The notes under the pieces are model-generated. The model was not told the DNA's origin. It did not search any database and worked only from the letters and a program-made list of their open reading frames with translations. A DNA stretch of 64,000 nucleotides from contig CAZULC010000001.1 of assembly GCA_964621165.1 (NCBI GenBank), positions 204,281-268,280 on the forward strand. The letters are read 5' to 3'. Positions 5,229-63,665 of the stretch are shown here, one piece after another (positions within the stretch are counted from its first letter, which is position 1; every line of letters starts with the position of its first letter). A program made the position numbers and the translations under genes. The DNA comes from an uncultured Ruminococcus sp. (GTDB lineage: Bacteria; Bacillota; Clostridia; Oscillospirales; CAG-272).

Positions 5229-5660
5229 CGTGAAGAGGAGACGAGGTAACTTCGAAGAAGTTAGAAGATACCAAAGGGATCTCCGGGGGACAAGAGGAGA
5301 CGCGCTTTTTGAAAAAAGCTGTTCAAGAACTTTAAAACTGAGTCTTTTTTTTGGTGTAGAAAGCTGAATAGGGGAGACAACCTTTCTCCTGTTCTGTAGT
5401 TTAGTAGTGAGAAAGTCGACAGGGAAGTAGAATACCAAGGGATCAGGAAGAATGAAATACGGCGGTCCCTGACTGCTGTCTCTACTGTGTCCTCAGGTCA
5501 AGGATTGCTCCACTTCCACCGCATCCTTCCTACTAAACTACAGAACAAAAGATAGGACGCATGCCATGCTCAGCTTCACATAATTGTGACCCAGTTTTAA
5601 AGTTCTTGCACAGCTTCTTTCAAGAAGCGCGTTCCCCCCGTCTCCCGTCTCCCCCTCACT
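5229..5660. repeat. Family A mosaic repeat, copy A1: composite palindromic form (forward half plus reverse half)
   Basis: A forward end module lies at about 5299-5345 (diverged). A reverse end module, GTTCTTGCACAGCTTCTTTCAAGAAGCGCGTTCC, lies at about 5591-5637. The interior matches the other copies in both orientations. Confidence 0.85.
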
Positions 5661-5682
5661 TCATTAACTGAAAGGAATTGTT

Positions 5683-6696
5683 ATGGAACAGGAATTGTTT
5701 GCTCAGATTTATTTGGATTCTGTGCGACGGAATTTGAATGGATTTGAGATTTTGCAGGCTTGTGATTCTGTGATTACTGCCGAAAGGATGTGGCGGATTG
5801 CGGAGCGGCTTGTCGATAATGCACAAAAATTTAATTTGACTTCTATTCTTCAACCGGAGGAGATTGTTAAGAAACATATCGTTGACTCAATCGTGCCTCT
5901 GGGGGTGCTCGTTTCTCGCGGGTATTTTGCGGGGGTTGATGCTGGCTCGGCTGACTCGACTGATTCGGATAACCTGGCTGACTCAACTGACTCAGCTGGA
6001 CTCCCTTCTCACGGGGGGTTTGCTGTGGCGGACGTGGGGACAGGGGCGGGGTTTCCTCTGCTGCCTATGGCGGCGGCTGCACTCGAATATTTCCCGAGGG
6101 GGCGGGTTTCGTTCACGGGGATTGATTCCACAGCGAAAAAGCTCGCACATGTCAGGGAAACGGCGGAATTTGCGGGGCTGGATAACGTGAATACCGTCGA
6201 GGGACGGGCGGAGGTTTTGGGCAGATTTTGTCCGTTTTTCGGCTCGGGTGACAGTAAACCCGGAAATAAAGGGAATAACAAAAAATTTACCTCATCAGGA
6301 AAATACGGCGGAAAACGCGGCAAAGCTGAATCCTCTCTCAGGAAAATCACGCCTTATCCCCACTCTCCAAACTCCATTCTATCACCTTCTTCTCTGCGGG
6401 AAAGCTTCTCACTCACATGCGCACGGGCGGTGTCTGCTCTGCCGGTTCTGCTGGAACTTCTGGCTCCGCTCACTCGGGTGGGTGGAATCGTGGCCGCGCT
6501 CAAGTCCCATGCCGAGGATGAAATTGCCGCCGCAGGATGTGCACCTGAGATTTTGGGACTGGTTCTGCGCGACGTTGTCTCCTATTCCCTTGACGGCGAG
6601 GACCACCGGGAGCTTCTGATTTACGAAAAAATCCGCGGATGTGAGGAAAAATACCCCCGTCAGTACGCCGATATTATAAAACACCCCCTGAAATAG
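5683..6696 (+). CDS. rsmG: 16S rRNA (guanine527-N7)-methyltransferase RsmG (GidB) with two low-complexity insertions
   Basis: SAM motif DVGTGAGFPLLPMA, plus FNLTSI and ARAVSALPVLLELLAPL. It sits in the conserved position upstream of noc-soj-parB. Confidence 0.85.
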   Translation: MEQELFAQIYLDSVRRNLNGFEILQACDSVITAERMWRIAERLVDNAQKFNLTSILQPEEIVKKHIVDSIVPLGVLVSRGYFAGVDAGSADSTDSDNLADSTDSAGLPSHGGFAVADVGTGAGFPLLPMAAAALEYFPRGRVSFTGIDSTAKKLAHVRETAEFAGLDNVNTVEGRAEVLGRFCPFFGSGDSKPGNKGNNKKFTSSGKYGGKRGKAESSLRKITPYPHSPNSILSPSSLRESFSLTCARAVSALPVLLELLAPLTRVGGIVAALKSHAEDEIAAAGCAPEILGLVLRDVVSYSLDGEDHRELLIYEKIRGCEEKYPRQYADIIKHPLK

Positions 6697-6979
6697 TCAT
6701 ATTCAGGAAATTCCCATATAAATCAGGATAAAACTTCATTCACCGACCTTTAGCCTGCTCCGGTTCAGTCAATATACTCAAGTCCCCTGACAAATGGGGA
6801 TTTTTCTTTTTCTCCGCTGTAAAATCGCTTTTTCGCCTGACCCCTGCCGACGGGATTTTCCCGCTCCATATGGTATAATTTACCTGCGGCGCTGGAGATG
6901 GTTTCCATTTCCGTCAAGCGGCGGACGCGGAATCCTGCTTTGGCGGGTGCAAAATATTAACATAAGGCGGAGGTTGAAA

Positions 6980-7882
6980 ATGTTCTGGGGTAAAATCAAG
7001 GAAGTCAAGAGCGTGGTTCGTGAGATTGAGATTTCGGCCATAATAATCCCCGACGGACGGGCAAGAAGAGTGCGGGACGACGACCGGCTCAGGGCTTTAG
7101 CTGACAGCATTGCCGAACACGGGATTATTGAGCCGATTCTGGTGCGGCGGGAGCTTGAAATGTCGTCGACTGTACACAAATCCAGCGGAAATTACGTCCT
7201 TGTGGCAGGGGAGCGTCGGATTGCGGCGGCTGAACTGATGGGGCTGTCCACGGTTCCGGCGGTGATCATTGAAGCGGATGAGGAAAGCGGCGCGATTCTG
7301 GCGATTATTGAGAACCTGCACCGGGAGGACCTTACGATTTTTGAGGAAGCCGCGGCAATCAAGACCCTGCTCGCCCTGACCGGAATGACGCAGGAAATGT
7401 GCGCTGCCCGTCTGTCCGTCAGTCAGTCGTACGTGGCGAACAAAATCCGGCTTTTGCGTTTGACAGAAGATGAAAGGAATTTGATTCTCTCAAGTGGCCT
7501 GACGGAGAGGCATGCACGTGCGCTTCTGAGGCTTGACGGGACTGAGCGGCGGGAGGCTCTGGACAAAATTATCGCCCGTGAGATGAACGTGAGCCAGGCG
7601 GAGGAGTTTGTGGAGGACCTTGTCTGTGCGGGTGAACGTCGGCTGGAAAAGGAGCGGCTCGAGCGTGAATCGGCGGAGGCTGTAGACCAAAAGAAAGCGG
7701 AACAGCGCCGGAAGCTGATTGTGCGCGACATCCGGATGTTCTACAACTCCATAGACAAGGCTGTGGACATCATAAAAAAGTCGGGGATTAAGGTATCCTC
7801 GTCGAGAAAGGAACTGCCGGAAGGAGTGGTGATCGAGATTCTCCTGCCGAAAGAAAAAACGGAACAGGCTTTGGTGGGGTAG
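6980..7882 (+). CDS. noc: ParB/Noc-like DNA-binding protein (nucleoid occlusion protein position)
   Basis: ParB N-domain (GIIEPILVRR, LVAGERRIAAA), an HTH (SQSYVANKIRLLRL), and the gene order rsmG-noc-soj-parB. GGAGG lies 7 nt upstream of the ATG at 6980. The ORF-track start at 6794 looks like an unsupported extension. Confidence 0.8.
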   Translation: MFWGKIKEVKSVVREIEISAIIIPDGRARRVRDDDRLRALADSIAEHGIIEPILVRRELEMSSTVHKSSGNYVLVAGERRIAAAELMGLSTVPAVIIEADEESGAILAIIENLHREDLTIFEEAAAIKTLLALTGMTQEMCAARLSVSQSYVANKIRLLRLTEDERNLILSSGLTERHARALLRLDGTERREALDKIIAREMNVSQAEEFVEDLVCAGERRLEKERLERESAEAVDQKKAEQRRKLIVRDIRMFYNSIDKAVDIIKKSGIKVSSSRKELPEGVVIEILLPKEKTEQALVG

Positions 7883-61850: not shown

Positions 61851-61926
61851 ATTTCCTGACCTGCTGTAGGCAGAAGGAAATTTAGATAAACAAAAATTTT
61901 TTCTGAGAAAATCAGGAGGACAAATT

Positions 61927-63222
61927 ATGTTTAAGAAAATTGCCGCTGTAGTAATGGCTGCTGTGATGCTGTTTAGTATGATGGCAGTGCTAAGCTCATG
62001 TTCATCCGGAGGAGAAGACCTCAAGATCGGATGCATACTTGTGGGCGATGAGACAGAAGGCTACACAAAGGCGCACATGGACGGTATCAAAGAAGCTGCG
62101 AAGGAGCTTGGGATAGCTGACAGCCAGATTGTGTGGAAGTACAAGATTGAGGAGAACTCAACCTGCCTTGACGCGGCTACAGACCTCGTTGGACAGGGAT
62201 GCAATCTTGTGATATCGAATTCATACGGACATCAGACATACATGGTACAGGCGGCTGAGCAGTTCCCGGACGTAACGTTTGTATCAATGACGGGCGACTT
62301 TGCGGCCATATCAGGCGTACCGAACTTCAAGAACGGATTCACGAAGATATACGAATCCCGTTACGTGTCCGGAGTTGTTGCGGGCATGAAGCTGGCTGAG
62401 CTGATTGACAACGGCACAATTTCTCCGGAAGGAACACCGGAACACTTTGACGAATCCGGCAACGCGAAGATTGGTTATGTTGGCGCGTTCAACTATGCTG
62501 AGGTTGTATCCGGATACACAGCGTTCTATCTTGGCGTAAAGTCCATTGTACCGAACGTTGTAATGGAAGTAAACTACACGAACTCCTGGTTCGACATTGA
62601 AAAGGAAGCCGCCGTTGCTGAGGCTCTTGTTGCCAACGGATGTGTTATCATTGGACAGCACGCCGACTCAACAGGCGCTCCTTCCGCATGCGAAAAGCTT
62701 CTTGCATCCGGCAAGGTATGTTATTCTGTAGGCTACAACATTGACATGCTTGAAACCGCACCGAACGCCGCTCTTACATCCCCCACTAACACATGGGCTG
62801 AGTTCTACAAGGATCTGTTCAAGGCCGCACAGGACGGCAAGCTTGAAGAATACAGCACTGACGTGGCGAAGGGTTACGCTGAAAACGGCGTCGCTATAAC
62901 CGCGCTTGGTTCAAGCTGTGCTGCCGGAACTGCCGAAAAGGTAGCCGAAGTTGAAGCCGGACTCAAGAACGGCACAATTCACGTATTTGACACAAGCACA
63001 TTCACCGCGTCAGCTGATCAGGACACATGCACCGTTGAAGTTGACTCCGAAGGTCATGTTACTTCCTGCAAGGTTGACCTCTCCTTCATGGACTACACCA
63101 CTATGACTGCCATCTATCAGGGCGAAGTTGTAGAATGCATCAAGGACGGCTACTTTGACGAGTCCACCCTCCGCAGTGCTCCCTACTTCTCCATCCGCAT
63201 TGACGGCATTGTAGAAAAATAA
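61927..63222 (+). CDS. BMP-family ABC transporter substrate-binding lipoprotein (nucleoside-binding type)
   Basis: Lipobox (LSSCSS) and a BMP/PnrA-like core. An ABC ATPase gene follows. Confidence 0.85.
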   Translation: MFKKIAAVVMAAVMLFSMMAVLSSCSSGGEDLKIGCILVGDETEGYTKAHMDGIKEAAKELGIADSQIVWKYKIEENSTCLDAATDLVGQGCNLVISNSYGHQTYMVQAAEQFPDVTFVSMTGDFAAISGVPNFKNGFTKIYESRYVSGVVAGMKLAELIDNGTISPEGTPEHFDESGNAKIGYVGAFNYAEVVSGYTAFYLGVKSIVPNVVMEVNYTNSWFDIEKEAAVAEALVANGCVIIGQHADSTGAPSACEKLLASGKVCYSVGYNIDMLETAPNAALTSPTNTWAEFYKDLFKAAQDGKLEEYSTDVAKGYAENGVAITALGSSCAAGTAEKVAEVEAGLKNGTIHVFDTSTFTASADQDTCTVEVDSEGHVTSCKVDLSFMDYTTMTAIYQGEVVECIKDGYFDESTLRSAPYFSIRIDGIVEK

Positions 63223-63284
63223 TCCCCCATTCGAACACATCTGGGAAGTCTCTGTACTTAACAAAGGCTTCCTTTTGTGGTTTG

Positions 63285-63665
63285 AGGGCGAGGAAGTGGA
63301 GCGAGTGCTTGGCGGGAGTGAAAGGGGACGAGTGGAACGCGCTTCTTGAAAGAAGCTGTGCAAGAACCTTAAAACTCATTCTCCTTTTGGTTTAGCTGAG
63401 TAGGAAATGCTCACTCCGAGCTATTCTTTAGTTTAGTAGGGAGGATGCAGTTGGAGTTTAGAATACCACGACCTGAGGAGTAGGGGAGACAGCAGTCATG
63501 GACTGCCTTGTTGGAGATAGCTTGATATCTCCGGTACACAGCTTCCGACCCCTGTCTGCCACGTACGAATTCCGATTGTGGGATTTAGTAACTTAATGGG
63601 ATGTTGGGTTTGCCTTACGGACTTGGTTTTGTTCAGCTGAGCCGGAGAGAATACCTTTTAGGGCG
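63285..63665 (+). repeat. Family A repeat, copy A24 (long form)
   Basis: The end module lies at 63335-63380. It also has the central hairpin GCAGTCATGGACTGC, the hairpin GGAGATAGCTTGATATCTCC and a TTGCCTTACGG tail. Confidence 0.85.

Follow-up and report, generated by a model that had tools for sequence, protein, structure and literature searches.

Hairpin-ended mosaic repeats in the spacers of a Clostridia origin region are probably gene-less mobile elements

What is the hairpin-rich repeat that recurs between the genes of this uncultured Ruminococcus contig, and how did it come to be there? The stretch analysed here (the window) is 64,000 nt long, and an earlier note had described in it one modular repeat family, here called family A, whose copies share a hairpin-bearing end module. 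We compared these copies with one another and with loci and contigs of relatives, which carry L-numbers below. The explanation that we prefer, at a probability of about 0.7, is that family A consists of non-autonomous, gene-less, mobile mosaic repeats resembling bacterial interspersed mosaic elements (BIMEs) and miniature inverted-repeat transposable elements (MITEs), and that they are probably moved by an enzyme encoded elsewhere.

The 29-nt core of the end module, GCGCTTCTTGAAAGAAGCTGTGCAAGAAC, matched the window 18 times at up to three mismatches and did not occur in any of 100 dinucleotide-preserving shuffles used as the chance control; at up to five mismatches it matched 19 times. All 19 end-module positions listed in the earlier note were recovered in this way, and its six minimal or degenerate copies are present as well (Table 1). 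Ten of the 19 copies have the core without any change, and the remaining nine differ at no more than five positions. Full-length copies taken as a whole are 62–84% identical (mean 70%), and their ends are much more conserved than their interiors. There are 13 single-ended copies in the window and three double-ended ones, whose two end modules are inverted to each other at a distance of 290–300 bp. Self-BLAST found 7094 bp of repeated DNA in the window, and with an nhmmer profile built from nine full copies 6073 bp could be assigned to family A. This amounts to 9.5% of the window and to 39% of the non-coding DNA in it (14.6 kb); the initial estimate by eye had been about 7 kb, or a tenth of the window. 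To say that family A occupies nearly every spacer was an overstatement: it is found in 18 of the 31 spacers of at least 100 bp (20 if two degenerate copies are counted), or about 60%.

Could the repeats be an artefact of assembly or chimerism, as the earlier note had considered? We found nothing that speaks for this and give it practically no credence. Logan contigs of run SRR10165008 match window positions 31816–33115 and 33123–36702 at 100% identity, including across element interiors, and their ends fall in a repeated tail, in the end module and, at the distal end of one of them, in the gene for tRNA-Ser. Since an independent short-read assembly agrees with the window over these stretches and breaks inside the repeats, we take the repeats to be real. 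Homologous elements also occur in unrelated assemblies and in a closed replicon of an isolate, which are described below.

The case for mobility, which the earlier note had favoured, rests on orthologous sites that are filled in one genome and empty in another. The gyrB-pfkB spacer measures 492 bp in the window, where it is filled by family A, and 15 bp in L002, one of the nearest GyrB relatives (metagenome-assembled genomes, or MAGs, at 74–76% identity). The pfkB-gyrA spacer, likewise filled, measures 423 bp against 68 bp in L002, and in L051, another of these MAGs, the gyrB-gyrA spacer is 17 bp long; neither L002 nor L051 carries such repeats. Between dnaN and remB the window has a family A-filled spacer of 248 bp and L003, a goat-caecum MAG, one of 13 bp. 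The C-terminus of GyrB is kept (-ENLDV in the window, -ENLDI in L002 and L051), and the stop codon is TGA in the window, L002 and L003. Phage contigs provide a second set of such sites. In about 50 relatives a 277-aa structural gene is followed by the next gene after 7–12 nt (TAA-AGGAnnnn-ATG). In L113 and L114 a 186-bp double-ended element sits exactly between the TAA and the AGGA ribosome-binding site, L115 has an internal-deletion form of it at the same site, and L156 has a 190-bp element at the same junction with different but still paired hairpins; together these elements span 123–190 bp. As the nearest relatives of each filled phage branch are empty, this one junction must have seen either two gains or several precise losses.

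The repeats are not private to this genome. In L003 an end module with one extra T:A pair lies directly after the remB-like gene, and a pattern admitting this variant retrieved 25 metagenome contigs, the long ones with 5–9 end-module matches per 12–14 kb between housekeeping genes. The variant GGTCGCTTTTTTGAAAAAAAGCTCCGCAAAAAAC was found in five viral contigs (GC 44–62%), and BLAST from it led to a closed 52-kb replicon of the cultured strain Anaerotruncus colihominis VE303-02 (L182, NZ_CP094683.1), with 11 model matches at E < 0.001 in 50 kb and repeats of 300–430 bp filling the spacers. These elements carry the end module on their 5’ side and ...GGCAATCCGCGCACGGATTGCGCGCGCC, which resembles ...CCGGATCCCGATTGC of the window, on their 3’ side. 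What all of these share is an end signature: a distal stem that is paired but free in sequence, usually an extrahelical T on its 3’ side, below the G:C pairs, a T-run, GAAA loop and A-run, then a 4-nt linker, C-A(n)-C and TTTA. Arms and interior differ between the orthologous remB-gyrB elements of L003 and L093. Judged by these sequences, family A is one branch of a wider superfamily in Oscillospiraceae-type Clostridia and phage contigs. Some further features of these relatives were seen along the way. A unit of about 40 nt, TTTATACAGGCTGCGCCGCGAACAGTGGGGCGGGTTCCGGCG, is repeated in tandem one to three times within the A. colihominis elements (L182 2440–2798 and 32054–32450), and NZ_CP094683.1 is labelled a plasmid yet holds mostly housekeeping-type genes. 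L003 has a short palindrome family of its own, GGGGAAACCTTTTT..AAAAAGGTTTCCCC then GAACCCCTTCCAAAAAAC (12116–12325, 17019–17091, 17447–17478 and 9920–9955), whose layout, a hairpin and a tract that complements the 5’ arm in parallel, is that of the family A end module.

Several observations weigh against a mobile, trans-mobilised family. The genomes with empty sites are only 63–76% identical to the window in protein, and the precise chemistry of excision or insertion cannot be read from them. A target-site duplication of 8–10 bp was not found: the best direct repeats around 16 elements equalled those of a mismatched-flank control, in a setting where variable arms blur the outer boundaries and duplications of 2–4 bp would lie below resolution. 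Of the two signs that the earlier note had proposed to seek, empty sites were thus seen in relatives, and a duplication above control was not seen. True terminal inverted repeats are absent from the thirteen single-ended window copies and from the A. colihominis copies; they are present in the three double-ended window copies, in type II metagenome copies and in phage copies. We found no transposase, REP-associated tyrosine transposase (RAYT) or recombinase beside any copy; the search covered the 64-kb window, about 20 open reading frames (ORFs) sampled from metagenome loci and 50 kb of A. colihominis DNA for which annotation exists. Exact end-module words gave no match in one-genome-per-species contigs (29-mer) or in JGI metagenome contigs (21-mer). 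Finally, the end modules prefer the sense orientation after stop codons only weakly (27:15, p=0.09).

Some candidates arising from these comparisons were rejected. Two pairs of possible target duplications, TTAAAGTGA/TTAACTGA and AAGTATTAC/AAGTATAAC, fall inside the control distribution, and the AAG seen on either side of phage copies coincides in part with the ribosome-binding site. The 30 larger ORFs of the window, scanned against protein-family libraries, gave no transposase or recombinase and match housekeeping families. In L085 an IS4-family insertion sequence (211–1471; 386-aa transposase, perfect 25-bp inverted ends CATAGGCGGGAACTTAAGCAAAAAA) lies within a type I element; it was dismissed as the autonomous partner because its ends are unrelated and it interrupts an element.

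How is an element built? The order of modules was read from the aligned full copies. The outermost 5’ part is a purine-rich (G-rich) arm of 17–75 nt with the core GGGGAGACGAGGGGAAC and optional outer modules. The arms read GGGGAAC...GTTCCCC, and the 5’ flank of the end hairpin is GGGGAAC/ACGC or CGGTC. These conserved arms lie outside the end module, which is therefore not the outer end that it had been taken for. The arm is followed by the hairpin GCTTCT-TGAA-AGAAGC, by TGTG-CAAGAAC-TTTAAAAC, by a variable hairpin that exists in a few alleles and by one of two alternative modules. The conserved 3’ block consists of GGCAGTCAGGGACCGCC, GGAGATAGC-TTG-CTATCTCC, ACACAGCTTCCG, CCCCTGCCTGCC and ..CGATTGC (in short, GGCAGTCAGGG...CCCTGCCTGCC...CGATTGC), and one of two tails completes the element; the 5’ and 3’ hairpins are unlike each other. 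All of the modules named at the outset are present in the order then given. One of them, ACACAGCTTCC, had been seen as a reversed end module, which is doubtful: comparison with relatives shows that GGCAGTCAGGG pairs with CCCTGCCTGCC, and the segment GGAGATAGC...ACACAGCTTCC is more readily explained as inserted into this helix's loop, so that ACACAGCTTCC is probably not a degenerate inverted end.

In the double-ended copies two halves, one with module 1 and one with module 2, are fused head to head, and the minimal copies consist of a G-arm, GCGCTTCTTGAAAGAAGCGC and a C-arm, which would be the deletion product expected between the two self-complementary hairpins of a double-ended copy. We take the basic unit to be directional, asymmetric and 200–420 bp long, because the A. 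colihominis elements are clearly directional. Elements overall span 120–430 bp and the ORFs within them are chance frames. Head-to-head joining accounts for the double-ended palindromes, and deletion between hairpins would account for the minimal ones. Beyond this, the following course of events may be proposed. An enzyme encoded in trans would recognise the end hairpin, and copies would then decay and recombine among themselves into a mosaic, for which the remB-gyrB elements of L003 and L093 may serve as an example. Elements within operons, such as gyrB-pfkB-gyrA, would be co-transcribed with their neighbours.

Most other readings of single modules were discarded. A small gene or leader peptide was suggested by AGGAGA-N7-ATG in the outer arm and a frame of about 70 codons in one copy; the ATG is found in two of seven arms and the others stop at once. 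A second element inserted in a REP-like palindrome, with the hairpin as target duplication, does not fit loops that are reverse complements and not direct copies. An outward promoter in the end module (TAAAGT / TATAAA) is unsupported, with poor -35 regions and one weak 9/12 match at 5575. A guide like those of bridge RNA or omega RNA is not expected in a variable hairpin whose few alleles are common to copies and not copy-specific.

Next to mobility, the explanation that deserves most attention is that family A is mainly a functional transcribed RNA, a 3’-UTR or intercistronic module that stabilises, processes or insulates operon mRNA and whose spread is secondary. Where elements lie in a tight operon (gyrB-pfkB-gyrA) or separate a stop codon from a terminator (52793–53063), they must be transcribed, and the end modules often come right after a co-oriented stop, 27 times as against 15 by gene starts and 6:1 in A. 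colihominis. Paired changes maintain the end hairpin, whose GAAA loop is of the GNRA type. With a covariance model built on the end module we obtained 63 matches in the window and its relatives, in which 99.1% of the cells were paired and five of seven pairs changed on both sides, in an alignment fitted to that model, which favours structure. The main paired change is C:G to U:A, and 17 distinct sequences are without the same pair on both sides. None of 500 shuffles reached the observed percentage paired, the pairs or cells with both-side changes, or the covariation score, and slid controls were 42–73% paired. In A. colihominis and L156 the distal stem is wholly different and still pairs. Covariation between genera is also seen in the internal helix, where GGCAGTCAGGG, GGAAATCAGGG and GGAAGTCAGGG all have a partner that matches.

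Within the window, however, the folds look different. In the nine full copies one of 39 predicted pairs is compensatory and many are broken, and the single-ended copies have fold energies no better than those of shuffles (z from +0.7 to -3.4); only the long palindromes do better. As the antisense strand of the palindromic copies folds equally well or better, nothing singles out a sense RNA. There are also copies past terminators and ahead of promoters, as well as three or four in antisense orientation. Searches with Rfam covariance models, those of HEARO, group II intron domains and ribozymes included, returned only tRNA at gathering score, nothing at E<=1 for the window repeats and nothing at gathering score in 119 kb of relatives. 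On balance we consider a primarily RNA-level function unlikely. The pattern is that of a mobile family, in which the end structure is kept in propagating lineages and settled copies decay. The earlier view that substitutions are mostly uncompensated and speak against a strongly selected fold holds for the interior of window copies only, since the end hairpin is constrained between subfamilies.

If family A is indeed mobile, recognition may act on a folded single strand. REP/RAYT systems, IS200/IS605 elements and integron attC sites have substrates that are read in this way, and the compensated stems and conserved bulged T of the end module recall them; we advance this only tentatively. One more feature bears on the shape of such a substrate. 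In every subfamily the A-tract that comes after the hairpin is a copy of the 3’ arm as regards length and the place of its G, so that the opposite strand reads pyrimidine tract, linker, pyrimidine arm, loop and purine arm, the strand order needed for an intramolecular pyrimidine-motif triplex (T.A-T, C+.G-C). A mirror repeat is distinguished from a direct repeat here by one variant only, and the triplex remains a lead. It would be a long shot to claim the end module as a new folded-strand recognition structure, a triplex capped by an extrahelical base, that is used by a strand-specific enzyme in an Oscillospiraceae-wide counterpart of REPIN-RAYT travelling in phages.

The sites that the elements occupy can now be considered. 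The window is a Clostridia origin region, as the earlier note had held: dnaA, dnaN, gyrB, gyrA, mnmE and jag are present and DnaA boxes cluster at 25945–26580; it also holds rsmG, noc, parAB-like, remB-like and pfkB-like genes, tRNA-Ser, infB and nusA. Some copies lie in 3’ UTRs or within gene groups that must be operons, others between convergent terminators or ahead of promoters. They start at or a few nucleotides from stop codons or, in other cases, just upstream of ribosome-binding sites. Several ORFs end inside an arm, and the TGA of the hairpin loop ends ORF 47712–49064 and four ORFs in relatives. TGA is the stop codon in 12 of the 15 genes directly before family A (e.g. 14873–15553, 47022–47579 and 50824–51558) and in 11 of 29 other genes (Fisher p=0.011); as the purine-rich arms are rich in GTGA, the elements may often supply the stop codon.

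Table 1. Family A elements and remnants in the window, with the matches to GCGCTTCTTGAAAGAAGCTGTGCAAGAAC (position and strand) that fall in each.
Span	Strand	Type	GCGCTTCTTGAAAGAAGCTGTGCAAGAAC matches	Context and remarks
5230..5664		double-ended; end modules 5294-5338 (+), 5594-5638 (-)	5302+, 5602-	fills spacer from glycosyltransferase gene stop (5228) to rsmG ribosome-binding site; RNA fold z = -11.5
9382..9443	-	degenerate end-module remnant		upstream of parB-like gene
12080..12410	+	full single-ended, tail T2	12117+	after MORN-repeat gene (stop 12063)
14777..14842	+	minimal palindrome: G-rich arm, GCGCTCCTTGAAAGAAGC hairpin, C-rich arm
16177..16608		double-ended; end modules 16215-16259 (+), 16520-16564 (-)	16223+, 16528-	between mnmE (stop 16597, minus strand) and next minus-strand gene
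18091..18473	+	full single-ended, tail T1	18143+	between mnmE and jag, antisense to both
23698..23750	+	degenerate: two arm modules joined at GCGCTTC		upstream of dnaA promoter
25572..25965	+	full	25637+	begins at dnaA stop codon; abuts DnaA-box cluster
28278..28484	+	short	28340+	between dnaN and remB-like gene; orthologous spacer empty in L003
28873..29126	-	short, tail T1	29043-	upstream of gyrB, antisense
31419..31872	+	full	31445+	about 10 nt past conserved gyrB stop; orthologous spacer empty in L002
32807..33196		double-ended	32826+, 33118-	between pfkB-like gene and gyrA; orthologous spacer shorter in L002
36807..36930	+	minimal		between tRNA-Ser and infB terminators
44901..45255	+	full	44939+	divergent spacer, upstream of promoter-like site 45324
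46674..46853	+	short	46693+	begins at upstream gene's stop codon
47580..47660	+	degenerate: G-rich arm + GAAGCGCGTTCCCC		identified by eye
49026..49344	+	full	49054+	overlaps 3' end of ORF 47712-49064 (ends at hairpin-loop TGA)
51559..51650	+	minimal, degenerate palindrome		after trkA-like gene
52799..53063	+	short, tail T1	52815+	between stop codon 52792 and terminator-like site 53045: 3' UTR
60411..60727	+	full	60433+	upstream ORF ends within its G-rich arm
61479..61823	-	full	61771-	antisense, between two plus-strand genes
63311..63649	+	full, tail T2	63339+	after Bmp/PnrA-like gene

Might the hairpins be terminators or attenuators that replace canonical terminators in this lineage? Two things may speak for this: many genes are directly followed by an element, and terminator-like sites in the window are no commoner than in shuffles. 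However, an A-tract and not a T-run follows the end hairpin, and the terminator pattern is matched by only two internal hairpins, at 5366 and 60492. True terminators adjoin elements at 36763, 36978 and 53045, metagenome elements begin 3–10 nt past the gene’s own terminator, and elements inside operons would stand where read-through is needed. We regard this explanation as very improbable.

Slightly less so, if still improbable, is the proposal that a protein which organises the chromosome or is linked to replication binds the end modules, much as gyrase or IHF does at BIMEs or as happens at parS and Noc sites, and that they are concentrated at the origin. Elements are dense around dnaA and the DnaA boxes, conservation of the end sequence is strong, and 11 of the 13 single-ended copies share the ‘+’ orientation, given by the G-rich strand (p=0.022). 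Relatives, on the other hand, are equally dense at dxr-rseP-ispG, radA, hydrogenase and sugar kinase genes and in phage structural operons, and the equally related L002 and L051 have no elements around gyrB. Moreover, the parS and Noc-site consensus sequences bear no likeness to the end hairpin. Copy orientation does not flip at the DnaA-box cluster. Quite apart from the repeats, GC skew stays positive between about 2 kb and 64 kb, without a sign change at the dnaA-dnaN DnaA-box cluster, and rsmG-noc-parAB lie on the plus strand, opposite to mnmE-jag-yidC-rnpA; from these two features, either the working origin would lie elsewhere or the region would have been rearranged recently.

Family A is not the only repeat in the window. 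A second family (GGGAGCAAATTTTAGGTCGGCAATGTCCGACTGCGGCAGCTATGG ... GCCTGTCGGTGCTACCGACCCCG) is found at 18478–18610, 42716–42906, 28424–28484 and 60661–60727; it is often joined to family A tails, and the mosaic therefore reaches beyond family A. A third family of about 170 bp is found at 20878–21055, 58220–58388 and 58503–58652 (reverse), with two inverted copies upstream of an acyl-CoA ligase gene. At 40095–40410, between infB and the next minus-strand gene, a 105-bp unit occurs in three tandem copies that are 93–94% identical and contains CGGGGGCTTCCCC, found also in the second family. The N-terminal part of infB itself has in-frame tandem repeats (39497–39803, apparent period 24 bp), and its product IF-2 is 1030 aa long. 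Several housekeeping proteins far exceed the lengths of their profiles, for example RsmG (337 aa against 183; 5683–6696), Jag (715 against 203; 18700–20847) and DnaA (562 against 437; 23887–25575), which suggests lineage-specific insertions or extensions.

Altogether, one family makes up a tenth of an essential, origin-proximal region and about 40% of its non-coding DNA, a load that is high relative to other bacterial repeat families known to us. Palindromes of 350–430 bp separate gyrB, pfkB and gyrA and border the DnaA-box cluster, and the load falls in operons that require read-through. As the same end signature recurs in several Clostridia lineages and in phage contigs, the superfamily as a whole has so far gone unnamed, and it is accessible in a culturable host, A. 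colihominis VE303-02, from human faeces. In the only public run with the genes of the window, the contigs for the two genes that were looked up are 1.3 and 3.6 kb long, and no species representative in the genome collection carries the 29-mer core of the window. Since short-read assemblies shatter at the repeats, such lineages are likely under-represented among MAGs. For a search for the mobilising enzyme, the end hairpin with its bulged T and the co-varying A-tract offer a concrete starting point.

How does family A compare with known systems? The likeness to BIME, BOX and Correia elements that the earlier note had pointed out is borne out in that family A is a modular, hairpin-rich, non-coding repeat family. 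That no named family fits has held up so far: there was no Rfam match, BLAST of a window copy against plasmids and phages found none, exact end-module words gave none in viral contigs, and a search of papers by sequence strings and keywords did not turn the family up. Two less obvious identities were also dismissed. Tn3-type 38-bp ends (GGGG...) or the TG...CA termini of DDE elements are not supported, with conserved arms outside the GGGG and no duplication. A group IIC intron came to mind as some metagenome copies start with GTGYG a few nucleotides past a terminator; there is no domain V or Rfam intron match, the copies are too short, GTGYG is unconserved in the window and many copies are double-ended.

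Among the closest known kinds are the BIME/REP/REPIN repeats of Enterobacteria and Pseudomonas, which are mobilised by RAYT. Like these, family A forms extragenic, hairpin-based mosaics of a palindromic unit and short motifs, with inverted pairs that make long stem-loops, a place at gene 3’ ends and in operons, no ORF and no clear target duplication. In contrast to them, its units are 5–10 times longer (200–420 vs 35–150 bp), it lacks a 5’ tetranucleotide of the GTAG type, its hairpin has an AT-rich part next to the loop and is followed by a co-varying A-tract, no RAYT was seen in the loci examined, its hosts are Clostridia, and copies occur in phage contigs too. Correia, BOX and ERIC elements were likened to family A by architecture and set apart by their descriptions. 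Correia elements (NEMIS, Neisseria) carry an IHF site and a TA duplication, and their terminal inverted repeats have a fixed length of 26 bp. They share with family A that they are small, dense, non-coding and co-transcribed, sometimes overlap gene ends, form long RNA hairpins and have internal-deletion variants. Family A differs in its combinatorial interior, in the absence of true inverted termini from most copies and in that we found no duplication. In Streptococcus pneumoniae, BOX elements are similar in their ordered modules (boxA, boxB in n copies, boxC), intergenic position, richness in hairpins and a mobilising enzyme that is not known; judged by architecture only, they differ in being shorter and in lacking a T-run/GAAA/A-run end hairpin, and kinship in sequence would not be expected. 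ERIC/IRU elements are likewise imperfect palindromes in transcribed spacers, with longer variants of ERIC arising by internal insertion, and Rickettsia palindromic elements extend into coding sequence, as some family A arms and loops do in ending ORFs. Sequence, size and host differ from both, and the Rickettsia elements lie in frame within genes where family A contributes last codons only.

Palindrome-associated transposable elements (PATEs) derived from IS200/IS605 and integron attC sites resemble family A in having distinct ends, extrahelical bases in hairpins and no inverted termini or duplication, and its orientation bias (11/13) would fit them. They differ in that the 5’ and 3’ hairpins of family A are dissimilar, no fixed 4–5-nt target could be made out, with TGA or TAA ahead of many copies but fuzzy boundaries, and no Y1 transposase or integrase is nearby; the copy orientation that persists across the DnaA-box cluster also sets it apart from PATEs. 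Integron cassette arrays, with RYYYAAC...GTTRRRY sites after promoterless accessory ORFs and an integrase beside them, are a poor match, as the flanking genes are core and syntenic (dnaA, dnaN, gyrB, gyrA), the arms have the GGGGAAC...GTTCCCC form and the window has no integrase. With MITEs family A shares small size, the lack of an ORF and sites seen both filled and empty, and departs from them in lacking an 8–10-bp duplication above control; no parent insertion sequence with the same ends turned up in the loci examined. As each known kind has at least one defining feature that family A lacks or does not clearly show, we do not place it in any one of them and file it as a previously undescribed family, a variant of the general BIME/MITE-like kind.

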